Assembly (NCBI RefSeq): GCF_009931435.1
Contig: NZ_CP043414.1
Length of the DNA: 64,000 bases
Source of the DNA: Escherichia coli
Lineage (GTDB): Bacteria > Pseudomonadota > Gammaproteobacteria > Enterobacterales > Enterobacteriaceae
Direction: 5' to 3' (one strand)
Shown here: in pieces, positions 5,240-58,367 of the stretch
Layout: the number at the start of each line of letters is the position of its first letter
How positions within the stretch are numbered: position 1 is the first letter of the stretch
Notes under the pieces: model-generated
What the model was told of the DNA's origin: nothing
Databases searched by the model: none
What the model saw: only the letters and a program-made list of their open reading frames with translations
Program-made: the position numbers and the translations under genes

Positions 5240-8198
5240 CCTTAATCGCGTCATCGGATGGTCTGGTTTACTGCTGACGTCTTTATTGAGTACCAGCGCA
5301 CTCGCAGACAATATCGGCACCAGCGCAGAAGAGCTGGGGCTGAGCGATTATCGCCATTTTGTTATTTATCCCCGTCTCGATAAGGCGCTGAAGGCACAGA
5401 AAAATAACGACGAAGCAACCGCCATCCGCGAATTTGAATATATACACCAGCAGGTGCCGGATAATATTCCGCTGACTTTATACCTTGCGGAAGCCTATCG
5501 CCATTTTGGTCATGATGACCGGGCGCGGCTGTTGCTTGAGGATCAACTGAAACGTCACCCAGGAGATGCCCGACTTGAGCGCAGTCTGGCGGCTATTCCA
5601 GTTGAAGTGAAAAGCGTTACGACTGTTGAAGAACTGCTTGCCCAGCAAAAAGCGTGCGACGCTGCGCCGACCCTGCGTTGTCGCAGTGAAGTCGGGCAGA
5701 ATGCCCTGCGGCTGGCACAATTACCTGTCGCCAGAGCGCAACTGAACGATGCGACGTTTGCTGCATCGCCGGAAGGAAAAACGCTGCGAACCGATCTGCT
5801 GCAACGCGCAATCTACCTGAAACAATGGTCCCAGGCAGATACGCTATACAATGAAGCACGCCAGCAGAACACATTAAGCGCGGCAGAACGCCGTCAGTGG
5901 TTTGACGTGCTTCTTGCCGGGCAGCTGGATGATCGGATCCTGGCGCTGCAATCACAGGGGATCTTCACCGATCCGCAGTCATATATTACTTACGCGACCG
6001 CGCTGGCTTATCGTGGCGAGAAAGCACGCCTCCAGCATTATCTCATTGAAAATAAGCCGCTGTTTACCACGGACGCACAAGAGAAAAGTTGGCTCTATCT
6101 GTTATCTAAATACAGCGCCAACCCCGTTCAGGCGTTGGCGAATTATACGGTACAGTTTGCCGATAACCGCCAGTATGTTGTTGGCGCGACGCTACCGGTG
6201 CTGTTAAAAGAAGGTCAGTACGACGCAGCGCAAAAACTGCTCGCCACCCTCCCCGCCAATGAAATGCTTGAGGAGCGTTATACCGTCAGCGTGGCGACTC
6301 ATAACAAGGCTGAAGCTCTGCGTCTGGCACGATTGCTGTATCAGCAAGAACCGACAAATCTTACCCGCCTGGATCAACTGACCTGGCAACTGATGCAGAA
6401 CGAGCAGTCACGCGAAGCTGCCGATTTGTTGCTGCAACGCTATCCCTTCCAGGGCGATGCGCGCGTCAGCCAGACTTTAATGACGCGACTAGCGTCTCTG
6501 CTGGAAAGTCATCCTTACCTGGCAACTCCGGCGAAGGTGGCGATTTTATCGAAACCCTTACCGCTGGCGGAGCAACGTCAGTGGCAAAGTCAGTTGCCGG
6601 GTATTGCAGATAATTGCCCAGCAATCGTTCGCTTGCTGGGCGATATGTCGCCTTCCTACGATGCCGCCGCCTGGAACCGTCTGGCAAAGTGTTATCGGGA
6701 CACGCTACCCGGTGTGGCGTTGTATGCATGGCTTCAGGCCGAACAACGGCAACCGAACGCCTGGCAACATCGTGCGGTAGCCTATCAGGCGTATCAGGTT
6801 GAGGATTACGCCACCGCACTGGCGGCCTGGCAGAAAATCAGTCTTCACGACATGAGCAATGAGGATCTGCTTGCTGCTGCCAATACCGCCCAGGCGGCAG
6901 GAAATGGTGCGGCTCGCGATCGCTGGCTTCAGCAGGCAGAACAACGTGGGCTGGGAAACAATGCCCTCTACTGGTGGCTGCATGCGCAACGTTACATTCC
7001 TGGTCAGCCGGAACTCGCACTGAACGATCTCACGCGCTCAATCAATATTGCGCCTTCTGCCAACGCTTACGTTGCGCGGGCGACAATTTATCGCCAACGT
7101 CATAATGTCCCGGCGGCGGTGAGTGATTTGCGCGCCGCTCTGGAACTGGAACCGAATAATAGCAACACCCAGGCAGCGCTCGGTTACGCCTTGTGGGATA
7201 GCGGTGATATCGCACAGTCGCGGGAAATGCTCGAACAGGCGCATAAAGGGCTACCGGACGATCCGGCACTTATCCGACAACTGGCCTACGTGAACCAGCG
7301 TCTGGATGATATGCCTGCGACGCAGCACTACGCCCGTCTGGTGATTGATGACATTGATAATCAGGCGCTGATAACCCCACTGACCCCAGAGCAAAATCAG
7401 CAACGCTTCAATTTCCGCCGTCTGCATGAGGAGGTCGGTCGCCGCTGGACGTTCAGTTTCGATTCTTCTATCGGCTTGCGTTCCGGCGCAATGAGTACCG
7501 CTAACAATAATGTTGGCGGCGCAGCGCCAGGGAAAAGCTATCGTAGCTACGGGCAACTGGAAGCCGAGTACCGCATCGGACGCAATATGCTGCTGGAAGG
7601 CGACCTGCTCTCGGTTTACAGCCGTGTATTTGCCGATACCGGAGAAAACGGGGTGATGATGCCGGTGAAAAATCCGATGTCCGGCACCGGTCTGCGCTGG
7701 AAGCCGCTGCGCGATCAGATCTTTTTCCTCGCCGTCGAACAGCAATTGCCGCTGAACGGACAAAACGGCGCATCCGATACCATGCTGCGCGCCAGCGCCT
7801 CATTCTTTAATGGCGGCAAATACAGCGACGAATGGCACCCGAACGGTTCAGGCTGGTTTGCCCAAAACCTGTACCTCGATGCGGCGCAATATGTCCGCCA
7901 GGATATTCAGGCGTGGACGGCAGATTATCGCTTAAGCTGGCATCAGAAGGTGGCGAACGGACAGACTATTGAGCCTTACGCTCACGTTCAGGACAACGGT
8001 TATCGTGATAAAGGCACTCAGGGCGCGCAGCTTGGCGGTGTCGGGGTCCGCTGGAATATCTGGACCGGCGAGACGCACTACGACGCCTGGCCGCACAAAG
8101 TCAGTCTCGGCGTCGAATATCAACATACCTTTAAGGCGATTAATCAACGTAACGGAGAGCGCAACAACGCGTTTCTCACCATTGGAGTGCACTGGTAA
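5226..8198 (+). CDS. nfrA: Phage N4 receptor outer membrane protein NfrA (TPR-containing)
   Basis: ORF track 5205..8198; internal Met (MKENNL) gives 990 aa; signal peptide; overlaps nfrB end. Confidence 0.88.
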   Translation: MKENNLNRVIGWSGLLLTSLLSTSALADNIGTSAEELGLSDYRHFVIYPRLDKALKAQKNNDEATAIREFEYIHQQVPDNIPLTLYLAEAYRHFGHDDRARLLLEDQLKRHPGDARLERSLAAIPVEVKSVTTVEELLAQQKACDAAPTLRCRSEVGQNALRLAQLPVARAQLNDATFAASPEGKTLRTDLLQRAIYLKQWSQADTLYNEARQQNTLSAAERRQWFDVLLAGQLDDRILALQSQGIFTDPQSYITYATALAYRGEKARLQHYLIENKPLFTTDAQEKSWLYLLSKYSANPVQALANYTVQFADNRQYVVGATLPVLLKEGQYDAAQKLLATLPANEMLEERYTVSVATHNKAEALRLARLLYQQEPTNLTRLDQLTWQLMQNEQSREAADLLLQRYPFQGDARVSQTLMTRLASLLESHPYLATPAKVAILSKPLPLAEQRQWQSQLPGIADNCPAIVRLLGDMSPSYDAAAWNRLAKCYRDTLPGVALYAWLQAEQRQPNAWQHRAVAYQAYQVEDYATALAAWQKISLHDMSNEDLLAAANTAQAAGNGAARDRWLQQAEQRGLGNNALYWWLHAQRYIPGQPELALNDLTRSINIAPSANAYVARATIYRQRHNVPAAVSDLRAALELEPNNSNTQAALGYALWDSGDIAQSREMLEQAHKGLPDDPALIRQLAYVNQRLDDMPATQHYARLVIDDIDNQALITPLTPEQNQQRFNFRRLHEEVGRRWTFSFDSSIGLRSGAMSTANNNVGGAAPGKSYRSYGQLEAEYRIGRNMLLEGDLLSVYSRVFADTGENGVMMPVKNPMSGTGLRWKPLRDQIFFLAVEQQLPLNGQNGASDTMLRASASFFNGGKYSDEWHPNGSGWFAQNLYLDAAQYVRQDIQAWTADYRLSWHQKVANGQTIEPYAHVQDNGYRDKGTQGAQLGGVGVRWNIWTGETHYDAWPHKVSLGVEYQHTFKAINQRNGERNNAFLTIGVHW

Positions 8199-18144: not shown

Positions 18145-18744
18145 TCAGAACTTATAACCGACACCCACGATGAAACCGTCAGTGCGCCAGTCGCCACTGC
18201 CGGAGCCTTCATAAGCAATATCAATGGCCACGGATTCGGTCGGGTTAAACTACACGCCAGCTCCCCACGCCAGAGACGTGTTGCTGTGGCGACCGTCATC
18301 ACTTCCGGTCAGCACGTCGTGCGTTTTCCCCTTGTTGTCAGTTACGCGGAGATAATCCCCGGAGAAAGTCGACACACGGCTGTAAGCCATACCCGCCATC
18401 GCATACGCGCTGAACCATTCATTCACGCGCACAGACGGCCCCACCATCACGCTGAACCAGCGGTTACGCACGGAATCTTCATGCCAGCGGGTATTGCTGT
18501 AACGGGTAAGCTGGCGATTCTTGTCTCCTGCATAGCTGAATGACGTCACCAGCCCCAGTGTGTCCGTAAACTCATAACGGTATTTCACGTTAATCCCGTT
18601 AAGATCATCGCTGCCGGGAACGTTCGTCGAGGCATGAAGATACCCCGCGCTCAGCGTGGACTGATGTTCAGATGCCCATGCAGGCGCACCGGATACGGTC
18701 AGACAAATGGCTGCGGACAAAATGGCGGCATAAAGTTTACGCAT
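18145..18744 (-). pseudogene. lom: Lom-family (Ail/Lom) outer membrane protein gene interrupted by an in-frame amber codon
   Basis: ORF track 18250..18744 (164 aa) ends at TAG; the same frame continues 35 codons to a beta-barrel-type C-terminus ...GVGYKF then TGA. Confidence 0.7.
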
Positions 18745-18813: not shown

Positions 18814-21800
18814 TCAACGAATACTGATGCCGGAAGCGGCTTTTTTGGTCACAATCACCGTACAGTCGGTGATATTACCTGCCCACTGATTGCCTTTATG
18901 GAAAACCTTAAACTCCAGAGTGACGCTTCCCCTGCCACTCGGCATATCAATAACCGCACTGTAGCTACCGGGAATGGCCCCTTTAGTTTCTCTGGATGCG
19001 ATTAATACACCGTTTTTGCGAACTTCAAAACCATAACCCGTGTATCTTGTACCTCCCGGGTTATTACCACTTCCCGGATCGCTATACGCTATTCCGTTAA
19101 AGATAATGGGCGGAATAATGATTTGACGGTCAAAGTTATGATCATCGCTGATGGTGACTGTAACCGTCCCGTTTGGTGTTTCCGTGTTACCCCACGTACC
19201 AGCCTGTTTCGGAAATGATTTGGATACAGCTTTAACGAAGTCACCTCTGACCTGAGTCGCCTCCAGCATGCCCTTAATTGTACAGTTTTCATTTACCGTG
19301 ACATTGTTGAGCGTCCCGGCGTTCGCATTCACACTGCCACTGATATCCGCATTTTTAGCGGTCAGCTTTCCGTCTGATGTCAGGGAAAATACCGGTGGAT
19401 TTCCACCGCTGGTAATGGTGGGGGCCGTCAGGCGCTTCAGGAACACGTCGTTCATGAATATCTGGTTGCCCTGCGCCACAAACATCGGCGTTTCATTCCC
19501 GTTTGCCGGGTCAATAAACGCGATACGATTGGCGGCAACCAGAAACTGGCTCAGCTTGCCTTCCTCCGTGTCCTCCATGCTGAGGCCAATACCCGCGACA
19601 TAATGTTTGCCGTCTTTGGTCTGCTCAATTTTGACGCCCCACATCGCATTCCATTTATCGTTAGCGTCCTTCCACTCTTTCGAAAACTCATCCAGTCTGC
19701 TGGCGTTATCCTCCGTCAGATCAACTTTTTCCAGCAGCTCTTTACCGAGATGGGATTCGGTTATCTTGCCTTTGAAAAAATCCAGGTAACCTTCCGCATC
19801 ATCGCTCGCCCGACCAACAGCCTCCACGAATGCCGATTTGCCAACGGTGTTCACACTGCGAACGTAAAAATAATAATCATGGCCCGGTTTGATATTGATA
19901 CTGGCGGCTATCCAGTACAGTGCCGTACCAAGATAACGCGCGCTGGTTTCAACCTGCCTGATATCCGCAATCCGTTTTTCCGAGAACCAGAACTCAAACT
20001 GTACCGTCGGGTCATAAACCGCAAGATGCGGCGTGGCGGTTATCTGAAAATAGCCCGGCGTCAGCTCAATCCGCGACGGCGCTGCCGGTGCGGCAATCCG
20101 GAACGATACCGACGCCGGATCGCCCTGCTGTCCCCACGCATTTACCGCCCGGACTGTCAGCGTGTACCGTCCCAGCGCCAGTTGCGTGAAGCGGTATGTG
20201 GTTTCCGTCGTCCGGGCCGTGCTGACCAGCCGCTCACTGCCGTCATCCGCTGTTACGGTCAGACGGAGCAGGAAGCTCACGCCCTTCACCACCTTCGGCG
20301 TGTCCCAGCGCGCCAGCACCTGATATTCCCCGCTGTCTGCGGTGACTTCGGCAGTCAGGTGCTGCACCGCTGGCGGCGTGACACCATTCACCGTGCCGCT
20401 CTGGTCGCCGTCAAAGTGCGCCCCGTTATCCACGATGGCTTCTTTTTCCGGTACATGCTGCACGGCGGTGATGGCATACGTGCCGTCGTCGTTCTCACGG
20501 ATACTCACGCAGCGGAACAGGCGCTGGCGCAGCGTCGGCAGCTTCAGCCCCCACACGCTGTATTCAGCAACGCCGTCAGGAACACGGCTCACTTTCACCT
20601 TCACGCCGTCGGTGACGGACTGAACCTCCACGCTGACCGGATTGCCACTTCCGTCAACCAGGCTTATCAGCGTGGTACCGGAGGATGGCAGCGTGATTTC
20701 ACGGTCGAGCGTCAGCGTCCGGGTCTGGCTGTTTACCGCCAGCACGCGCCCGCCGGTGCTGATACCGGCATAGTCATCATCACAGATTTCAATGACATCG
20801 CCCGGCACATGGCGAAGCCCTTCTGCGCCCACGCTGAAGTCCACGGTCTGCGTTTCCAGCAGTTCTGTTTTAATCAGCCATAGCCCGGCGCGATGTGCCT
20901 GCCCCCGGCTGGTACAGCCAAAGGCATCCATCTTCGTGACGTTACGACCGTAACGGGCAATGGCCTGCGTGTCCTCCACAAGCTCTGTCGCCGTCTCCCA
21001 GCCGTTATTCGGGTCAATCCAGTTCACCTCAACGGCATTATGGCGGTCCTTCAGGGCGCTGAAGCTGTAGCGGAACGGCGCGCCATCATCCGGCATCACC
21101 ACATTACTGCGGTTATAGGTCCACACCTTATCCGATGGTCGGTCCTGCACGAACGTCAGCGTCTGCCCGTTCCATACCGGCATACAGCGCATCGCCGAGC
21201 AGAAATCACTGAGCACATCCCACGCCTTGCGCTGTGTGGTCAGGTACGCATTACAGGTGATGCGCGGCTCCGTGCCGCCAAAGCCGTCCGGCACTGACTG
21301 GTCGCAGTACTGGCCGATGACATACAGCGCCCATTTATCCACATCCGCCGCACCAAGACGTTTCCCCATGCCGTAGCGCGGATGGGTCAGCATATCCCAC
21401 AGACACCAGGCCATGTTGTTGCTGTATGCCGGTTTAAACGTTCCGTCCCAGATACCGCTGTATTGCCGCGTCTGCGGGTTATAGTTCGACGGCACCTGCA
21501 GAATGCGCCCGCGCAGATGATAATTACGGCTCACCTGCTGGCTGCCGAACTGCTCCGAATCCACCTGCACGCCGACCAGTGCCGTGTTCGGGTAGCCCTG
21601 TTTCACATCGATGATTTCGGTGTATGACGACCAGAGCGTTTTGTTCTGCAGCTGGTCTGTGGTGCTGTCCGGCGTCATCCTGCGCATCCGGATATTGAAC
21701 GGGCGCGGCGGCAGGTTACCCACCACCACCGAGGCCAGATACTGCGAGGTGGTTTTGCCCTTAATGGTGATGTCTTTTTCCGTCACCCAGCCACCATTAC

Positions 21801-22227
21801 GCTGGATCTGAACCAGCAGGCGGACTTCCGACGGATTCCTGTCCCCCTTTGAGGTGGTTTCCACCAGTGCCTGCACGCCGAAGGTAAAACGCAGTCGGTC
21901 AATGTTTGCCGACGTGATGGTCCGGGTGATCGGCGTGTCGTATTTCACTTCCGTACCCAGCACCGTCTCGGAGCCGGAGGATTCAAATCCCTCCGGCGGT
22001 GTCTGCTCCTGCTCACCGGCCCGGAACACCACCGTGACGCCGGAGATATTGGTATTCCCCTCACTGTCCAGCACTGGCGTACTGTTCAGCAGCACGCTTT
22101 TTAATCCATCCACCGGACCTTCAACCGGCCCTTCGCTGATGGCATCGATCACACTCAGCAACTGCGTGGACTTCAGGTTGTCCTTCGCTTCGCGCGGAGT
22201 ATGCCCCTTACTGCTGCCTTTACCCAT
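18814..22227 (-). CDS. J: Tail tip host specificity protein J
   Basis: ORF track 1137 aa; lambda gpJ-like; follows tail assembly genes. Confidence 0.93.
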
Positions 22228-39496: not shown

Positions 39497-39790
39497 ATGA
39501 AAAAAATGCTACTCGCTACTGCGCTGGCCCTGCTTATTACAGGATGTGCTCAACAGACATTTACTGTTCAAAACAAACAGACAGCAGTAGCACCAAAGGA
39601 AACCATCACCCATCATTTCTTCGTTTCTGGAATTGGGCAGAAGAAAACTGTCGATGCAGCTAAAATTTGTGGCGGCGCAGAAAATGTTGTTAAAACAGAA
39701 ACCCAGCAAACATTCGTAAATGGATTGCTCGGTTTTATTACTTTAGGCATTTATACTCCGCTGGAAGCGCGTGTGTATTGCTCAAAATAA
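39497..39790 (+). CDS. bor: Bor lipoprotein (serum resistance)
   Basis: ORF track 97 aa; lipobox LITGC; recognised Bor sequence. Confidence 0.9.
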   Translation: MKKMLLATALALLITGCAQQTFTVQNKQTAVAPKETITHHFFVSGIGQKKTVDAAKICGGAENVVKTETQQTFVNGLLGFITLGIYTPLEARVYCSK

Positions 39791-41140: not shown

Positions 41141-41564
41141 CTGTGTGACGAAGTAACCACTCTTAACAGCATAACCAATTTTTTACGTACGTAAACCACT
41201 AAATGATATTTGAGAGAATGCTACCGAGTATTGAAAACACCACTACAAATACATAAGCAAATCTCAACAAATAACCAAAAAATAATTTCCAGTGTTATTT
41301 TTAGCCGGTTTAAATTGAACCTTCAAATTATAGAACACTTATAAATAACAGCCGTTAATATAAATTGGCTAATAGATTTATTTTTATTCAGCCAAGAGCC
41401 ATGAATAGGATTCGATAGAAAAAAGTTCAGATAAAAATAGAGATCTACTTCACAAATCAAACGAGAAACCAAAACTTACATCTTGAAATAATCACATTGA
41501 TTAGATGAATATTTATCGCGCAGTGACATCATTTTTTAATAATAGTTCAAAAAAAGGGCTCACG

Positions 41565-42662
41565 ATGAAAAAATTAACAGTGGCAATTTCTGCTGTAGCT
41601 GCATCAGTACTGATGGCGATGTCTGCTCAGGCAGCTGAAATTTATAATAAAGACAGTAACAAGCTGGATCTGTACGGGAAAGTTAATGCTAAGCACTACT
41701 TCTCCTCTAATGATGCAGATGATGGTGATACTACTTATGCCCGTCTTGGCTTCAAAGGTGAAACCCAAATCAACGATCAACTGACTGGTTTCGGTCAGTG
41801 GGAATATGAATTCAAAGGCAACCGCGCTGAATCTCAAGGTTCCTCCAAAGATAAAACCCGTCTTGCCTTCGCTGGCCTGAAATTCGGTGACTACGGCTCC
41901 ATCGATTACGGCCGTAACTACGGTGTAGCATACGACATCGGTGCGTGGACTGACGTCCTGCCAGAATTCGGTGGTGACACTTGGACTCAAACCGACGTGT
42001 TCATGACTCAACGTGCAACTGGTGTTGCAACCTATCGTAACAACGACTTCTTTGGTCTGGTTGATGGTCTGAACTTTGCTGCTCAGTACCAAGGCAAAAA
42101 CGATCGTAGCGATTTCGATAACTACACTGAAGGTAACGGTGATGGCTTCGGTTTCTCTGCTACCTATGAATACGAAGGATTCGGTATCGGTGCAACTTAT
42201 GCGAAATCTGATCGTACCGACACTCAAGTTAATGCAGGGAAAGTTCTTCCTGAAGTATTTGCTTCCGGTAAAAATGCAGAAGTTTGGGCCGCAGGTCTGA
42301 AATATGACGCTAACAACATTTACCTGGCCACTACCTATTCTGAAACCCAGAATATGACTGTATTTGCTGATCACTTCGTTGCTAATAAAGCCCAAAACTT
42401 CGAAGCTGTTGCACAATATCAGTTCGATTTCGGTCTGCGTCCGTCCGTTGCTTACCTGCAATCTAAAGGTAAGGATCTTGGAGTATGGGGCGATCAGGAC
42501 TTAGTCAAATATGTTGATGTAGGTGCAACCTATTACTTCAACAAAAATATGTCTACTTTCGTTGATTACAAAATCAACCTGCTTGACAAAAATGACTTCA
42601 CTAAAGCACTCGGTGTAAGCACTGATGACATCGTTGCTGTAGGTCTGGTTTACCAGTTCTAA
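41565..42662 (+). CDS. nmpC: Outer membrane porin NmpC (OmpC/OmpD family), intact
   Basis: ORF track 41505..42662; start at MKKLTVAIS with signal peptide; C-terminal Phe; no IS interruption. Confidence 0.9.
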
Positions 42663-46762: not shown

Positions 46763-48289
46763 TTAGAAATAAATCTCACCATCAACCATATATTTGAGAG
46801 CACTTATCGCCTGCTGGGCGGATATTACTTTCATTAAAGGATAGTGTTTAAAAACAATGCCATTCATAAAATAGATATCACAGGTTTTATTATCCGTATT
46901 AATTATGATTTTTTCGAATGTTTTATAGGCAAGTGTACGGCATAACTCTCGTCCATTTTTACTGGTTAAGTCAATAGCATAAAAATCACTGAATGAATTT
47001 ACACCTTTACTCTTCAAAGTTTTCAATGATACCGAAGCCCTTCGTAATTCCTTATCTAATAGTCTTATTTTCTCTGCTATAGCGGTAACTTCAGGCGCGA
47101 CAGACAATGCAACGATTAAATTATTAATTTTCATCTGAAGCTCAATAATTTTTAACTCTAAAGTTTCATTAGCATCTTTCTTGTTTTCAACTGGTTGAAT
47201 TTTGCTACAATTAAAAAGCAATTCATTAATGATATTATAATCAACCAAATCTCTTTTTATTGATGGCCTGTCACATCGATGTAATCTTCTCATCGGACAA
47301 ACATAATAGCCATGCAAACTTCCAGATACCGCATGAACAATCATGGTATTACCACAAGCCTCACACTTCATAACTGTTCGAAGTAGATTTATTAGCATAG
47401 GATTCTTGCTACTATTGCTAATACCAAAAGGTGCCAACCGAATTTCCTGTACAGCGTAAAACAAATCATCTGATATGACTCTGGGATAATAGCCAGCGAT
47501 TTCACTTATCCCTTTCCCTCTTGCACGATATGAAGGTACGCAAATACCTATCAGAGCTTTATTCGCTAATAATTTTTCAATTACAGAAGGTCCCCATGCA
47601 CTTTCTTTTCCTGAGAAATTCTTTACAGCATGATCATTTAAATACTTGGCTATTGCATTCAATGAGCGCCTTTCCATCCTGAGTTTAAAAATTAGCTCAA
47701 TAGTTTTCACCCTGTCTGGGTCTGGAACAAAAGCCGTTCTTTTGTCATCTAAGGAGAGCCATCTCGGATAAGACGCCGTCATAATCGTACCTGATTCCAG
47801 TGCATCCTGCCGTTTTTTCTTCCATGATAATTTAACCCGACTTGACTTTATCTCGCTTTCTTCATTTGCCCTTTGTGCTATAAGTATGGCTTTTATTAAT
47901 GAATATGGCTCATTCAAAGAGTCAATATTATAGACTGTATTGTCGCAAAGAGTTATAACATCAATACCGTGATTCAAAATCAATTTCAGACGTTCAATCG
48001 CTTCACCGACTTTTTCTCTTGAAAGTCTGTCCAGACTTTCAACTAACAATGTAGTTCCTGGCAATATATAACCATGCTCTATAGCATCTAAAAATTCCGA
48101 AAAAGCTCCTGATTGTGCATGCTTTCCTTTGAATGCACTTAATCCTAAATCTTCATATGTTATGGTATCAAGATAATAATCACTATTTACCTTTAACCAT
48201 TCAGCAATAAGTCTTCTCTGTCGGTTTAATGAGTCGCCAGACATCTGACCTGGTGATGAAAATCGCATATATGCTATGGCTTTTTTCAT
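46763..48289 (-). CDS. ybcK: Large serine recombinase (YbcK-like)
   Basis: ORF track 508 aa; N-terminal resolvase catalytic motif (YMRFSS), Cys-rich zinc ribbon, C-terminal coiled coil. Confidence 0.82.
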   Translation of the reverse strand: MKKAIAYMRFSSPGQMSGDSLNRQRRLIAEWLKVNSDYYLDTITYEDLGLSAFKGKHAQSGAFSEFLDAIEHGYILPGTTLLVESLDRLSREKVGEAIERLKLILNHGIDVITLCDNTVYNIDSLNEPYSLIKAILIAQRANEESEIKSSRVKLSWKKKRQDALESGTIMTASYPRWLSLDDKRTAFVPDPDRVKTIELIFKLRMERRSLNAIAKYLNDHAVKNFSGKESAWGPSVIEKLLANKALIGICVPSYRARGKGISEIAGYYPRVISDDLFYAVQEIRLAPFGISNSSKNPMLINLLRTVMKCEACGNTMIVHAVSGSLHGYYVCPMRRLHRCDRPSIKRDLVDYNIINELLFNCSKIQPVENKKDANETLELKIIELQMKINNLIVALSVAPEVTAIAEKIRLLDKELRRASVSLKTLKSKGVNSFSDFYAIDLTSKNGRELCRTLAYKTFEKIIINTDNKTCDIYFMNGIVFKHYPLMKVISAQQAISALKYMVDGEIYF

Positions 48290-48543: not shown

Positions 48544-48876
48544 TTAATGTGGTGTGCTTCGTGACAATAAATTAATAATCAACACACCGGCACAAATCAA
48601 CATCATGCCTATAATGGCTGGCAGGTCCAGCCGTTGGCCGAAAAATCCCCATGACAGTAAGCTAATCAGGACAATACCGACTCCTGACCAGATAGCATAA
48701 GCAATCCCTGTAGGAATATAAGCCAGCGTCTGAGCTAATAACCAGAATGATGCACAATAACAAATAATTGTACCAACAGATGGCCATAACCGTGTAAAAC
48801 CTTCTGAAAACTTCATTAAGGTTGTACCAATGACCTCTGCAAGTATTGCACCACCAAGATAAATATAAGGGTTCAT
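48544..48876 (-). CDS. emrE: SMR-family multidrug efflux transporter EmrE
   Basis: ORF track 48544..48930; start at MNPYIYLGG gives 110 aa; four TM segments. Confidence 0.9.
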   Translation of the reverse strand: MNPYIYLGGAILAEVIGTTLMKFSEGFTRLWPSVGTIICYCASFWLLAQTLAYIPTGIAYAIWSGVGIVLISLLSWGFFGQRLDLPAIIGMMLICAGVLIINLLSRSTPH

Positions 48877-50960: not shown

Positions 50961-51496
50961 ATTGCCCCCAGCATGGTGGTCACCATCGCCATTAATGGAC
51001 CAGCCAGATCCGGGTCCACACGAAACATCGACACAATACCTTCACTCATTTCCTTCAGTTTCTGGTGGCGTGGTGCGTTGAGAATGACAGCCTGTTTTGC
51101 CTCACTGAGTTCCTTTTCCATTTCAGCCAACCGAGTCATGAAGCTATCCTGCTCAACCAGGTAACCGCGATATTCCAGCGGTAGTACCGCCAGAATTGCC
51201 GGGGTCAGTTCACGCACGTTATTTCGGTATTTTTCAGAATCGAATTTGTTATCGAGGAAGCGGAACAGCTTCTGGCGTGCACGGCTGACATCATCAGGGA
51301 AATCGATGGTGCCGTCGCCCTGCTCCCGATACTCATTCACAATGAGTGCGGCAACGACATCCTGATTATCTACAGCCGACCAGGCGCGGACGGCATCACG
51401 GATTTTTTCGTGGCCTGGAGCTTGTTTTGTTTGAGAACGATTTATCACCGCAGTCGGAATAAATCCGCTAGTCTGTTGGTATGTAAGTGGTTGCAT
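50957..51496 (-). CDS. YdaT-like protein at the cII position
   Basis: ORF track 179 aa; follows the Cro-like gene and is coupled to O. Confidence 0.55.
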   Translation of the reverse strand: MQPLTYQQTSGFIPTAVINRSQTKQAPGHEKIRDAVRAWSAVDNQDVVAALIVNEYREQGDGTIDFPDDVSRARQKLFRFLDNKFDSEKYRNNVRELTPAILAVLPLEYRGYLVEQDSFMTRLAEMEKELSEAKQAVILNAPRHQKLKEMSEGIVSMFRVDPDLAGPLMAMVTTMLGAI

Positions 51497-51565
51497 AATT
51501 GACTCCTTTAGTTTGAATTGACTGTTAAGTTGATTGCTTATTGTTAAAGAGCGTGAAATGGAAAT

Positions 51566-51796
51566 TTAAGCTGCGTTCTTTTCGGTGTGTGGAAACAACT
51601 TCGGAAGATCCGGGCGAATCTGGTATGCCTTCACAACTCCACCAGTAGCCGTAACAATGCTGCCGACATGTTCAGGGGATACCTTTGCTTTGTTGTGAAG
51701 CCACTTATAGACGGCCTGCTGTGAAACTTCGCAGGCATCGCCTAGTTTCTTTTGTGAACCAACGATATTGATCGCTGTTTTGATTGCTGGGTTCAT
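51566..51796 (-). CDS. Cro/YdaS-like HTH regulator
   Basis: ORF track 76 aa; HTH (QQAVYKWL); divergent from repressor gene. Confidence 0.7.
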   Translation of the reverse strand: MNPAIKTAINIVGSQKKLGDACEVSQQAVYKWLHNKAKVSPEHVGSIVTATGGVVKAYQIRPDLPKLFPHTEKNAA

Positions 51797-51900
51797 AACA
51801 ACCTCCGTGGTTAATCCGAATCAAGATTAAAACTATGGTTGTTTTTAGTCAACAACCATTTTCGTTTGATGAAATAAAACCTTGGTTGTACATTTGATCT
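51797..51900. promoter_or_regulatory. Right operator/divergent promoter region with ATGGTTGTT-N7-AACAACCAT palindrome and extra TGGTTGT half-sites
   Basis: Inverted repeat read at about 51835..51859 between the divergent repressor and cro-like genes. Confidence 0.55.
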
Positions 51901-52590
51901 ATGAAAACAACACTCTCAGAAAGACTTAAAGAAGCCAGATTAGCGCGAGGCCTTACACAAAAGGCGCTTGGGGATTTGGTCGGGGTTAGCCAGGCTGCTA
52001 TTCAGAAAATCGAAACAGGGAAAGCTAACCAAACAACTAAAATCGTGGAGATCGCGAACGCTTTGGGTGTACGCGCAGAATGGTTATCTTCTGGCGTTGG
52101 AAATATGTCAGACAGTACAGTGCAACCAATACAATCAACTGTCAGCCATTCCAAATACTTCAAAATTGACGTTCTTGATATAGAAGTCAGTGCCGGGCCA
52201 GGTGTAATCAACCGTGAGTTTGTAGAAGTTCTACGCTCGGTTGAGTACTCGTTTGACGATGCTCGTCACATGTTCGATGGCAGGAAGGCGGAAAATATCC
52301 GCATCATTAACGTGCGAGGTGACAGCATGTCAGGGACGATCGAACCAGGTGACCTGCTGTTCGTTGATATCACTGTTAAATCTTTCGACGGTGATGGCAT
52401 CTATGCGTTTCTGTACGACGACACTGCCCATGTAAAACGTCTTCAAATGATGAAGGATAAGCTGCTGGTTATCTCTGATAACAAGAGCTACTCGCCGTGG
52501 GACCCGATCGAGAAAGACGAGATGAACCGGGTGTTCATATTCGGTAAGGTCATTGGAAGCATGCCGCAGACGTACAGGAAGCATGGTTAA
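51901..52590 (+). CDS. Prophage repressor, LexA/S24-peptidase type (CI analogue)
   Basis: ORF track 229 aa; N-terminal HTH plus C-terminal autoproteolysis domain. Confidence 0.85.
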   Translation: MKTTLSERLKEARLARGLTQKALGDLVGVSQAAIQKIETGKANQTTKIVEIANALGVRAEWLSSGVGNMSDSTVQPIQSTVSHSKYFKIDVLDIEVSAGPGVINREFVEVLRSVEYSFDDARHMFDGRKAENIRIINVRGDSMSGTIEPGDLLFVDITVKSFDGDGIYAFLYDDTAHVKRLQMMKDKLLVISDNKSYSPWDPIEKDEMNRVFIFGKVIGSMPQTYRKHG

Positions 52591-52819
52591 TTTATCTACG
52601 ACTTAAGGGAGCGAAGGTTAAGGTTTATACCACTCGGATTAGATATTGCACTAAATTCTCTATAAGAACGCCAAATCTGTTTGCATATTTCAGTAAATAT
52701 TCTCGTTGTTAGCTGAGATTTGTTGCTACTGTCAGCAAAATGTCTCCCTATCTCGTAGCGGTTTTTATTTCGAATCATTATGTTAAGATGTTTCTGATTA
52801 TAATGAATGGAAACATAAA

Positions 52820-53200
52820 ATGAGAAAAATCCTAATCGCTGCCATGATGGCATCTGTATTGGCTGGGTGTGCTTCTTCAGGCAACCAGCAACTCAAAAAT
52901 GAAACTGAAATTAGTGTCCAGTCTAAACTTCAGGAAGGTAAAACAACCAAGAATGAGGTTAAATCTTACTTTGGTTCTCCTGATGCTGTTTCATATACTG
53001 ACAGTGGAAAGGAGATCTGGAAGTACGCCTTTGCAAAAGTAAAAGTTAATGGCACCACTTTTATTCCATTCTATGGATTATTCCATAACGGAACGAACGG
53101 TACGAAAAAAGAACTTACTATTCTTTTTAACGATGACACGATTAAGAAATACACAATGTCAGAAACCCAAATAAACTCGAAATCAGGTTGGGCTGACTGA
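52820..53200 (+). CDS. Putative lipoprotein, unknown function (cargo gene downstream of repressor)
   Basis: ORF track 126 aa; signal peptide with lipobox LAGC; own terminator downstream. Confidence 0.7.
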   Translation: MRKILIAAMMASVLAGCASSGNQQLKNETEISVQSKLQEGKTTKNEVKSYFGSPDAVSYTDSGKEIWKYAFAKVKVNGTTFIPFYGLFHNGTNGTKKELTILFNDDTIKKYTMSETQINSKSGWAD

Positions 53201-53217
53201 TAATCATACCCGGCAAC

Positions 53218-53246
53218 CGCGCCGGGTTTTCTTTTCCTCCCCCTCA
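53218..53246 (+). terminator. Intrinsic terminator after the lipoprotein gene
   Basis: Hairpin cccggc-aaccgc-gccggg followed by ttttctttt. Confidence 0.65.
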
Positions 53247-53476
53247 TAACTCATACCGTCCAAAAAACCACCACACCTCACTTCAGTTATCGCTATGCGA
53301 TGCAAGTCACAAAATAAATCCATCCTAAATACAACCAGTTATATTTAAAACAACCGATAAAACAACTTTTGTTGTTGACGATAAAACAACTATAGTTTTA
53401 AATAAATTCATCGCAACGACACAACGATACGGTAACCACCTGTTTCACCGTTGCGATGACCGCTTAGATCCGCAGT

Positions 53477-53887
53477 TTGAATTTCAGCAGGCTTCGGGGA
53501 GTGCGAGGGGTGAAACGGACGCGTGAACGTCGGTGTGACCAGCTGAAATCAACACAACACTTTATACCTCAGTCGCTTCAACGAGGCGGCTTAGTTATGA
53601 CAACCGGCGGCCATCCACCGCCTGAATACGCGCAGAAGTCTCTATATGTTCAGCAGCCCAGCTTACGGGCAGGAGTTTTTATGGTTCATCAACATTACGG
53701 AACGCAGACCGTTAATCGAGGTGCGGTCATGCCAGGAATGCTGGTCAAACACAAAGATGGTACCTGGACTGCATCAGCTAATTTACGCGGACGGCTTTAT
53801 CTGCATCGCGGCATCGAGCGCACTTATACCCGTGATTTGCTCGTGGAAGTTTTTCTCGACGGACGCGGTAACGGCCTGAATCGCTAA
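53477..53887 (+). CDS. Hypothetical protein at the early-left position (possible start at 53597)
   Basis: ORF track 136 aa from a non-ATG start; first ATG (MTTGG...) has a weak RBS; in frame with and 75 bp upstream of gam. Confidence 0.4.
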
Positions 53888-53962
53888 TCCCCTTTCCTGT
53901 TTTCCTAATCAGCCTGGCATTTCGCGGGCGATATTTTCACAGCCATTTTCAGGAGTTCAGCC

Positions 53963-54259
53963 ATGAACGCTTATTACATTCAGGATCGTCTTGAGGCTCA
54001 GAGCTGGGCGCGTTACTACCAGCAGATCGCCCGTGAAGAGAAAGAGGCAGAACTGGCAGACGACATGGAAAAAGGCCTGCCCCAGCACCTGTTTGAATCG
54101 CTATGCATCGATCATTTGCAACGCCACGGGGCCAGCAAAAAAGCCATTACCCGTGCGTTTGATGACGATGTTGAGTTTCAGGAGCGCATGGCAGAACACA
54201 TCCGGTACATGGTTGAAACCATTGCTCACCACCAGGTTGATATTGATTCAGAGGTATAA
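53963..54259 (+). CDS. gam: RecBCD inhibitor Gam (short form)
   Basis: ORF track 98 aa; recognised lambda Gam C-terminus ...[10 protein letters not shown]. Confidence 0.9.
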
Positions 54260-57005: not shown

Positions 57006-57348
57006 GGCCTGTCAGTTTCTTAAGATATCCAGACCAACCGCCACCAACTGGATACGAACAGGCCGCCTACAGGCAACACGTAAAGATCCAACCAAGCCAA
57101 AATCTCCTTACCTCACAACACGGCAAGCCTGCATTGCGGCGCTTCAGTCTCCGCTGCATACTGTCCAGGTGAGCGCGGGTGATGGCATAACAGAGGAAAG
57201 AAAATGTCACTCTTCCGCAGAAATGAAATATGGTATGCCTCGTATTCGCTCCCGGGCGGGAAACGAATTAAGGAATCTCTTGGCACAAAGGACAAGCGGC
57301 AAGCTCAGGAGTTGCACGACAAGCGAAAAGCAGAACTCTGGCGAGTAG
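56977..57348 (+). CDS. xis: Putative excisionase (HTH, AlpA/Xis-like N-terminus); 3' end uncertain, overlaps int
   Basis: ORF track 56947..57348; internal Met MESYSL..; N-terminal HTH; position upstream of int. Confidence 0.5.
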
Positions 57349-58367
57349 AAAAGCTAGGGGATTTACCTGATGTCACTTTTGAAGAGGCCTGCCTAAGATG
57401 GCTTGAGGAAAAAGCTGATAAAAAATCTCTCGATTCAGATAAAAGCCGGATTGAGTTCTGGCTTGAACATTTTGAGGGTATAAGGCTTAAAGATATCTCG
57501 GAGGCAAAGATTTACTCTGCTGTAAGCAGAATGCATAACAGAAAGACGAAAGAAATATGGAAACAGAAAGTTCAGGCCGCCATCAGGAAAGGTAAAGAAC
57601 TGCCTGTTTATGAACCAAAGCCAGTATCAACTCAGACAAAGGCAAAGCATCTTGCCATGATAAAGGCCATTCTCCGTGCTGCAGAACGCGACTGGAAGTG
57701 GCTGGAAAAAGCGCCTGTCATCAAGATACCAGCGGTCAGAAACAAGCGAGTCAGATGGCTGGAAAAGGAGGAAGCAAAACGCCTTATTGATGAGTGCCCC
57801 GAACCACTGAAATCTGTCGTCAAGTTTGCGCTGGCAACTGGTCTGAGAAAGTCGAACATCATAAATCTGGAATGGCAACAAATCGACATGCAGCGACGAG
57901 TTGCCTGGGTGAATCCAGAAGAGAGCAAATCAAACCGCGCCATTGGTGTGGCGCTGAACGATACCGCCTGTAAAGTGTTGCGTGATCAAATAGGCAAGCA
58001 TCACAAATGGGTGTTTGTACATACCAAGGCGGCTAAGCGAGCAGATGGAACATCAACGCCTGCGGTCAGGAAGATGCGCATCGACAGCAAGACATCATGG
58101 CTATCAGCTTGTCGTCGTGCAGGAATTGAAGATTTCCGTTTCCATGACCTCAGACACACCTGGGCAAGCTGGCTGATTCAGTCAGGCGTCCCATTATCAG
58201 TGCTTCAGGAAATGGGCGGATGGGAGTCCATAGAAATGGTTCGTAGGTATGCTCACCTTGCGCCTAATCATTTGACAGAGCATGCGAGGAAAATAGACGA
58301 CATTTTTGGTGATAATGTCCCAAATATGTCCCACTCTGAAATTATGGAGGATATAAAGAAGGCGTAA
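57204..58367 (+). CDS. intD: Tyrosine integrase (DLP12 IntD-like)
   Basis: ORF track 387 aa; C-terminal catalytic domain; adjacent to tRNA-Arg. Confidence 0.9.

Follow-up and report, generated by a model that had tools for sequence, protein, structure and literature searches.

Among the lipoproteins encoded by mobile elements, Cor, Llp and TraT are exclusion factors, and Bor/Iss and TraT, which are proven envelope lipoproteins of such elements, give serum resistance. In phage lambda the position between cI and OL/pL is occupied by rexAB. We describe here the gene found at this position in a lambdoid prophage of Escherichia coli (NCBI RefSeq assembly GCF_009931435.1, contig NZ_CP043414.1), within a stretch of 64,000 nucleotides (nt) that was analysed as a whole and is called the window below. 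It encodes a 126-residue prolipoprotein with a BamE-like fold and, with its flanking signals, constitutes a mobile accessory unit ("moron") of a temperate phage. Also among the described systems are Lpp021 and Lpp010 of the mEp-immI phages, for which experiments have demonstrated exclusion of phages that depend on OmpA or LamB (PMC11893012).

The window contains a complete prophage of the DLP12 type in reverse orientation, in which the lipoprotein gene lies between the cI-type repressor gene and the OL/pL operator cluster, on the same strand as cI (Table 1). This agrees with the original prediction, which had placed the gene at the rexAB position of lambda and had described a 126-residue open reading frame (ORF) with an LAGC lipobox some 230 bp after the repressor gene; the spacing from the repressor stop to the start of the ORF is 229 nt. 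Phage PhiR26_1 carries the same gene with 99.6% DNA identity, annotated as hypothetical protein or putative lipoprotein, and 87 of 5426 complete E. coli genomes have it, the carriers being largely gut, enterotoxigenic (ETEC) or clinical isolates.

The ORF is a real gene under very strong purifying selection and not a chance ORF, because its product matches PHROG 3135 (no function annotated) from end to end (E 8e-48), has 227 homologues in a protein database clustered at 90% and 1339 cluster representatives at E<=1e-3 in an exhaustive search, and evolves with a dN/dS of 0.024. The 227 homologues are mostly 126 residues long and 71–99% identical, and most belong to Citrobacter, Enterobacter, Cronobacter, Kluyvera and Leclercia. 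Substitution rates were calculated for the mature part only, on 92 close relatives (80 IMG/VR loci and others) that comprise 65 distinct gene sequences and 43 distinct proteins. The median dN was 0.033, the median dS 1.67, which is saturated, and the highest dN/dS 0.068; nearly all of the amino-acid variation among the 43 proteins falls in the signal peptide. The gene is missing from most prophages with the same immunity region, as might be expected of a chance ORF or a decaying remnant without function. Such a low dN/dS at saturated dS, together with hundreds of intact 126-residue homologues, a confident fold and conserved flanking signals, leaves this explanation with practically no weight, and a non-functional ORF was rejected on the conservation data.

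The protein begins with MRKILIAAMMASVLAGC and has the signal peptide MRK-ILIAAMMASV-LAGC, in which the lipobox fits the pattern [LVI][ASTVI][GAS]C and the cysteine at position 17 is invariant in all 72 of the family members that were aligned. The residue after Cys17 (+2) is alanine, not aspartate. By the E. coli Lol rule a +2 residue other than aspartate predicts the outer membrane, and the mature lipoprotein is thus predicted to be sorted there. The mature part is a 110-residue domain of BamE fold with a family-specific insertion at residues 77–90. It was the glycine/proline motif that had suggested a likeness to SmpA/OmlA in the original prediction, and the profile search bore this out: Pfam PF04355 (BamE, SmpA/OmlA) matches residues 35–110 with i-E 4e-4, and 43 of the 72 diverse members match PF04355 singly at E<=1e-3, the best at 5.8e-9. 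Comparison with E. coli BamE by hhalign gave 90.6% (E 1.3e-6). The predicted structure has two helices on a three-stranded sheet, as in the BamE superfamily; BamE is the best structural and profile match, and OsmE is among the fold relatives. Within the family, conservation is highest in the FGSPD motif (G52 does not vary, and at least 90% of members have P54), which is aligned with the G-T-P turn of E. coli BamE, and the core motifs G-x-P, W-x-Y and L-T-x-x-F also align with BamE. The alignment of the 72 members has no conserved stretch of 7–10 columns.

The profile search and the structure prediction both support an SmpA/OmlA-type fold, but this part of the earlier interpretation does not extend to orthology with BamE. 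The protein is not a BamE orthologue, because no BamE model appears among its NCBIfam matches at E<=1, phmmer finds no BamE chain in the PDB at E<=10, the tether is short, there is an insertion, and the contact residues are mostly changed; a BamE orthologue was rejected on these grounds. The sole phmmer match, apolipoprotein E, is spurious and arises through the signal peptide, whereas Neisseria and Xanthomonas BamE matched E. coli BamE at about 1e-9 (BamE of other genera, 1e-9 to 1e-16). Between the lipid anchor and the domain there are 3 residues followed by a family-invariant Gly-Asn pair, which take the place of an N-terminal extension that in BamE is 12 residues long and includes the conserved Tyr28. 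The 14-residue insertion is flexible in the model, yet carries a conserved F-I-P motif, and the C-terminal hairpin is longer than that of BamE. The BamE residues reported to matter for contact with BamA and BamD are Y28, Y37, M64 and D66 (bioRxiv 10.1101/2024.10.31.621230). In our alignment these correspond to Leu25, a gap, Ala56 and Thr60 (then Asp61), so that at most one may be kept. Some alleles are named "outer membrane protein assembly factor BamE" in RefSeq; this name is a domain label that is too specific and is not to be read as designating a BAM subunit. The remaining NCBIfam matches (Ag473, TrsH/TraH, YgdI/YgdR, Lpp/OprI, OsmE and TrbH) are below threshold and driven by the signal peptide, and were rejected as family assignments. 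PHROG 3135 is a previously uncharacterised family that forms a distinct branch of the BamE superfamily.

When the 92 close relatives were classified by position, 63 were found after a cI-like gene and 24 immediately upstream of the tape-measure gene; three of the other five lie just upstream of the GtrB O-antigen-conversion gene (gtrABC), converging on a tail-spike-like gene. The tape-measure assignment was confirmed by PHROGs and, in related loci, by Pfam and annotation. Three accessory slots of unrelated temperate phages thus hold the gene at 76–100% identity. In prophages of Citrobacter, Enterobacter and Salmonella a gene 76–88% identical always follows the S24 repressor gene on the same strand, and these prophages differ in their replication (O/P, DnaB or DnaC types) and recombination (RecET, Erf, Bet/Exo) modules. 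A convergent ORF of 68–75 residues, with no Pfam match, abuts the lipoprotein terminator in the same prophages and is absent from the window (Table 1). In the tape-measure slot the neighbours are antirepressor/Rha genes and further small genes for secreted proteins or lipoproteins; the companions with signal peptides or lipoboxes belong to different families in different phages, and this slot appears to collect envelope-targeted cargo.

Relatives at 30–50% identity occur in temperate phages of Klebsiella, Alteromonas and Pseudomonas, and on 139 plasmids, of which 100 are predicted to be conjugative. Most of these plasmids are from Burkholderia glumae, and 111 Burkholderia plasmids carry a family member. 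On the conjugative (MPF_F) B. glumae plasmid p4_BGR15S (L106), a 46%-identical member lies downstream of a gene with a TraG-N domain, in a neighbourhood with genes for zeta-toxin, phospholipase D, DsbD-N and a YadA-like adhesin. On a 48-kb phage-like plasmid of E. coli a relative again precedes a tape-measure-like gene. Gilliamella, Serratia and an alphaproteobacterial endosymbiont have distant relatives among the ordinary genes of their chromosomes.

The slot between cI and OL is itself polymorphic. E. coli loci homologous to window positions 51566–53900 were compared (L103, L104 and L105), and among prophages that share both cI (WP_000858975.1, identical) and the OL-kil region three kinds of slot content are seen. 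The slot is empty in one version, which measures 1840 bp against 2335 bp for the query. In the filled forms it holds either a DUF6932 protein with a 310-residue protein, matching the PADLOC candidate system PDC-M63, or a 353-residue protein with an ASCH protein, matching the candidate system PDC-M11. The slot is a hot spot for variable cargo. We call the cassette a moron because the slot is empty or has other cargo in prophages with an identical cI; as is usual for such elements, it separates genes that are neighbours in related phages, has its own terminator, and occurs on unrelated backbones and at unrelated positions.

Upstream of the gene, the sequence directly after the repressor gene is a lineage-specific spacer in which alignments with relatives lose all similarity, and at the empty-site locus another spacer, about 130 bp long, is found. 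The AT-rich upstream region that had been ascribed to the gene is therefore its own only in the last ~45 nt, which are conserved with it in other phages, and not over the spacer. A minus-strand ORF at 52596–52853 sits in this unconserved DNA and was taken as spurious. Between spacer and promoter region is a weakly folding hairpin with a T-run; relatives have at the equivalent place a clean hairpin, CCAGCAAAGTGCTGG-TTTTTT or CCCGGC..GCCGGG-TTTTT, and the copy in the window is a decayed form of this terminator-like hairpin, which in the relatives insulates the block from upstream genes. The sole promoter-like block common to the cI slot and the tape-measure slot is an extended -10-like element, TG(T/A)TA(A/G)GAT in most distinct upstream sequences, from which a transcription start at about 52796 is predicted. 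Some relatives add a -35 element, TTGACC or TTGAAC, at a 16-nt spacing (read by eye), and a standard sigma-70 -35/-10 scan found no plus-strand promoter upstream of the gene. In a subgroup (IMG/VR loci L045, L047–L050, L054, L059–L062, L066, L068 and L094) the promoter block is missing; the gene begins 48–49 nt past the stop of the S24 repressor gene with a short AGCTTC...GAAGCT hairpin between them, in what is apparently an operon fusion with cI. Since most relatives have their own promoter-like block and the subgroup this fusion, we infer that the gene is expressed in the lysogen, in the window presumably from its own promoter.

Overlapping the -10-like element is a pseudo-palindrome that matches exactly the consensus of the RcsB box, TN(G/A)GAN4TC(T/C)NA (PMC7913699). 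Of 61 distinct upstream sequences 40 retain the box, and the only changes are at degenerate or N positions. The consensus occurs 3 times in the whole window against 2.6 expected, so that only the conservation of the box carries weight. A second match, TGAGAAAAATCCTA at 52821–52834, spans the start codon and is lineage-specific. An RcsB-activated promoter was rejected on geometry, because just 22 nt separate the end of the box from the ATG and the box overlaps the one -10-like element that is conserved; RcsB, if it bound at this site, could only repress, and we regard the box as an unexplained lead.

Downstream of the gene is a strong intrinsic terminator (-14 kcal/mol, z -3.5; none of 200 shuffled sequences folds as well). 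The original prediction was right about its existence, but it lies ~10 nt further left than the ~53218..53246 then given. Nearly all relatives have a hairpin with a T-run past the stop codon, its sequence varying with context, and the empty site holds a hairpin near-identical to that of the window. The view that the terminator belongs to the cassette alone thus holds only partly, and the hairpin may at the same time terminate the immunity region.

Table 1. Coordinates of the features discussed. Positions are those of the window unless an IMG/VR or other comparison locus (L number) is named, in which case they are those of that locus.
Feature	Position	Strand	Remarks
Prolipoprotein gene	52820-53200	+	126 aa, ATG start; between cI and the OL/pL operators
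Signal peptide (residues 1-16)	52820-52867	+	
Lipidated Cys17 (predicted)	52868-52870	+	Lipobox LAGC, residues 14-17
Lineage-specific AT-rich spacer	52591-52745		Upstream alignments lose all similarity here
Degenerate hairpin and T-run	52746-52770	+	Weak fold, -3.6 kcal/mol, z -0.2
Extended -10-like element TGTTAAGAT (TGnTAnnAT)	52781-52789	+	Conserved with the gene in two slots
RcsB-box-like pseudo-palindrome TAAGATGTTTCTGA	52784-52797	+	Exact consensus match; overlaps the -10-like element
TATAAT hexamer, alternative -10	52799-52804	+	TGCAAT in most relatives
GGAA, weak Shine-Dalgarno-like	52809-52812	+	7 nt before ATG; (T)GGAA or AGGGA in relatives
Intrinsic terminator	53208-53236	+	7-bp stem ACCCGGC/GCCGGGT, 6-nt loop, then TTTTCTTTT; stem-loop 53208-53227
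cI-type repressor (HTH + S24 peptidase)	51901-52590	+	Upstream slot border, outside the cassette
cro	51566-51796	-	Divergent from the repressor gene
OL-like operator cluster and rightward pL-like promoter TTGACG-17-TTAAAT	53330-53402	+	Promoter read by eye; downstream slot border
Integrase gene	57204-58367		tRNA-Arg beyond it in the identical RefSeq locus
Lom	18250-18744	-	
Bor/Iss	39497-39790	+	
Porin	41505-42662	+	385 aa
EmrE	48544-48876	-	
YbcK	46763-48289	-	Recombinase
Companion genes in tape-measure slot	L073 7420-7815; L077 7369-7794; L082 7815-8285; L097 7487-7993; L046 6609-6878		
Convergent 68-75-aa ORF	L003-L010 ~6410-6720; L017 5423-5650	-	

As to function, the reading that we favour, tentatively and short of calling it probable, is superinfection or entry exclusion by binding of a conserved envelope component from the periplasmic side. 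It is favoured because all three slots are classic sites of exclusion or conversion genes, because what other prophages carry in the same slot are candidate defence systems, and because those outer-membrane lipoproteins of phages and plasmids whose roles are known are mostly exclusion factors. That the gene is conserved across genera implies that its partner would be conserved as well. The protein would be cleaved and lipidated at Cys17, and Lol would place it in the inner leaflet of the outer membrane, so that the compact BamE-fold domain, 3–4 residues from its lipid anchor, would face the periplasm and could dock there on the envelope component. Contacts might be made by the Gly-Asn pair just after the anchor, which is invariant, and by the F-I-P loop, which is flexible but conserved. 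The outcome would be a lysogen refractory to entry by other phages or other mobile elements, exclusion taking place at the outer membrane or in the periplasm, as with Cor, Llp or TraT, but with an unrelated fold.

Several points weigh against exclusion. PADLOC-DB v2 yielded no family at E<=1 for the lipoprotein, PHROG profile and viral fold searches gave no sequence or fold relation to proven exclusion lipoproteins, and no paper on the PHROG 3135 lipoprotein family was found in the literature searched. The gene is not linked to one type of receptor-binding protein, as the J protein is 434-like here and the phages that carry relatives are of quite other kinds. With a dN/dS of 0.02 the protein evolves far more slowly than is usual for proteins engaged in an arms race. 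The ancestral role is cellular, because distant members are ordinary genes of the chromosome that have no phage in their vicinity, and the promoter of the cassette is itself a prediction from sequence.

The same constraint bears on the alternatives. Strong purifying selection is typical of a physiological function, and the protein could be a fitness or virulence factor of lysogenic conversion like Bor/Iss or TraT, giving resistance to complement, detergent, bile or osmotic/envelope stress with no effect on phages. An accessory lipoprotein on phages and conjugative plasmids fits such a role, as do the serum resistance given by Bor/Iss and TraT, the stress-induced lipoproteins such as OsmE among its fold relatives, and the largely gut, ETEC or clinical origin of the carrier strains. 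This prophage already has Bor/Iss, however, the protein has no homology to Bor or TraT, and the other cargo of the slot consists of candidate anti-phage systems; we consider a fitness factor unlikely, though a serious alternative. Immunity to a toxin appears improbable. In that case the protein would be an orphan, a periplasmic inhibitor of BamE fold directed at an incoming toxin or enzyme, such as an effector of a type VI secretion system (T6SS) or of contact-dependent inhibition (CDI), a bacteriocin or a phage-tail cell-wall hydrolase. The fold has precedent among immunity and inhibitor proteins, but none of the contexts examined has an adjacent toxin gene, and such proteins are described as rapidly evolving, the opposite of what is seen here.

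A conserved, essential partner, which the very strong conservation would fit, is also proposed if the protein mimics BamE or modulates BAM or Rcs by docking on BAM, or on a client such as RcsF, in place of BamE or beside it. It would then alter outer-membrane protein assembly or Rcs signalling, for example to tune the capsule or surface or the assembly of the prophage's own Lom and porin, and the RcsB-box-like operator over the promoter would give feedback. BamE is indeed the best structural and profile match, with three core motifs aligned; the exact RcsB consensus is conserved with the gene in two genomic contexts, and the same prophage encodes Lom, Bor/Iss and a porin. Yet the residues for contact with BamA and BamD are for the most part not kept, a 3-residue tether stands in place of the 12-residue extension, 14 residues are inserted, and phmmer gives no link to any BamE at E up to 10, where BamE proteins of other genera are matched at ~1e-9. 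The box, moreover, overlaps the -10-like element so near to the ATG that only repression could result, and a single match is not significant alone. On balance we rate such an action as somewhat less likely than that of a fitness factor. Its broadest form, in which phages and conjugative plasmids of Proteobacteria would share a BamE-derived lipoprotein that targets BAM and/or RcsF-Rcs and remodels the surface for the resident element, with a promoter wired to RcsB through 52784–52797, is more doubtful still, and only slightly more credible to us than the orphan immunity protein.

The surroundings of the cassette were also characterised. The repressor is annotated as cI or S24 family peptidase in PhiR26_1 and RefSeq, and on the other side of the prophage the identical RefSeq locus has emrE, ybcK, rusA, quuD and essD. 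The OL cluster, ~100 nt past the terminator, is the densest group of AACAAC/GTTGTT hexamers across the 64 kb; a second cluster, OR, lies between cro and cI, and OL and OR share their half-sites. A palindrome, ACAACTTTTGTTGT, is located inside the OL cluster at 53362–53375. A relaxed operator pattern gave a single match that is not significant, the hexamer density being more informative. Downstream of the pL-like promoter are kil, gam, bet and exo, and between OL/pL and kil (53681–53887) an N-like gene is absent. The leader at 53405–53600 has an 11-bp perfect stem within 53408–53459 and more hairpins (minimum free energy -60.9 kcal/mol, z -1.9); it could be an RNA-based antitermination element like put of HK022, and Rfam gave no credible match in 51400–54100, the leader included. 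The prophage is unusually rich in envelope-directed accessory genes, namely Lom, Bor/Iss, the porin and EmrE, and it also has the YbcK recombinase. In its central tail fibre J (18814–22227, minus strand) the C-terminal 240 residues are 95% identical to those of phage 434 J and 99.6% identical to those of J in phage Perceval and in many Stx1a and Stx2c phages. The receptor of 434-type J is OmpC, and the similarity implies a host range of the 434 type.

Protective genes that are expressed by the lysogen may be sought in the slot next to cI in lambdoid prophages. The cassette is an occupant of this slot that consists of a single gene, with a product predicted to be located in the envelope, that is found also in tail-gene and O-antigen-conversion slots and on plasmids, and that is conserved at the level of a housekeeping gene. 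Its mobility between slots, its carriage by plasmids and this conservation point together to a host target in the outer-membrane/periplasmic compartment that is conserved and probably important. Should the protein prove to exclude phages, the few lipoproteins that block receptors or entry would gain a new fold and probably a new target, which would be relevant to the host range of therapeutic phages in E. coli, Salmonella, Citrobacter, Enterobacter and Klebsiella. Should it prove to act on BAM or Rcs, it would offer a natural means of probing an antibiotic target and would be the first known factor of a mobile element that targets BAM/Rcs from inside the periplasm. Its BamE fold, taken with the same conservation, mobility and plasmid carriage, poses a clear question that is cheap to address by experiment.

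Compared with known systems, the phage lipoprotein is additional to the host's own bamE, and differs from BamE in its 3-residue tether, where BamE has a 12-residue extension with Tyr28, in the 14-residue insertion with F-I-P and in its longer C-terminal hairpin; BamE is undetectable from it by pairwise sequence search, and the residues for contact with BamA and BamD are mostly not kept. The immunity and inhibitor proteins BtiO, BLIP and those directed at Lipocone toxins have the same BamE fold, are periplasmic and act by protein binding. They sit beside their toxin and evolve fast, whereas the phage lipoprotein has no toxin neighbour and is extremely conserved. RexAB of lambda and the candidate systems PDC-M63 and PDC-M11 share with it the slot and the orientation relative to cI, as interchangeable accessory cargo; they are cytoplasmic or inner-membrane systems of two genes without homology to this single secreted lipoprotein. 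Bor/Iss and TraT are likewise outer-membrane lipoproteins expressed from a resident mobile element, and belong to unrelated families.

Cor (phi80, N15 and HK022) and Llp (T5), which inactivate FhuA, are likewise small outer-membrane lipoproteins encoded by phages, and the action proposed here, binding of an envelope protein from the periplasmic side, is of the same kind; relatives of the window gene are also found within tail-gene clusters. They differ in having no sequence or fold relation to it. Cor (PHROG 1119) is matched with E 0.064 over residues 1–47 only, the region of the signal peptide, and is absent from the viral fold matches, and for Llp no PHROG except 3135 matches beyond the signal peptide. 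In BFVD the only related entries are SmpA/OmlA lipoproteins of Pseudomonas phages. The window phage, moreover, has J of the 434 type and not of the FhuA type, and the gene follows cI instead of standing beside the receptor-binding gene. Lpp021 and Lpp010 are also lipoproteins, encoded in the structural-gene cluster of temperate coliphages, and nothing in the text of the paper that describes them points to a relationship with the present one (PMC11893012). The cassette as a whole belongs to a well-known kind of element, the lipoprotein moron of temperate phages.

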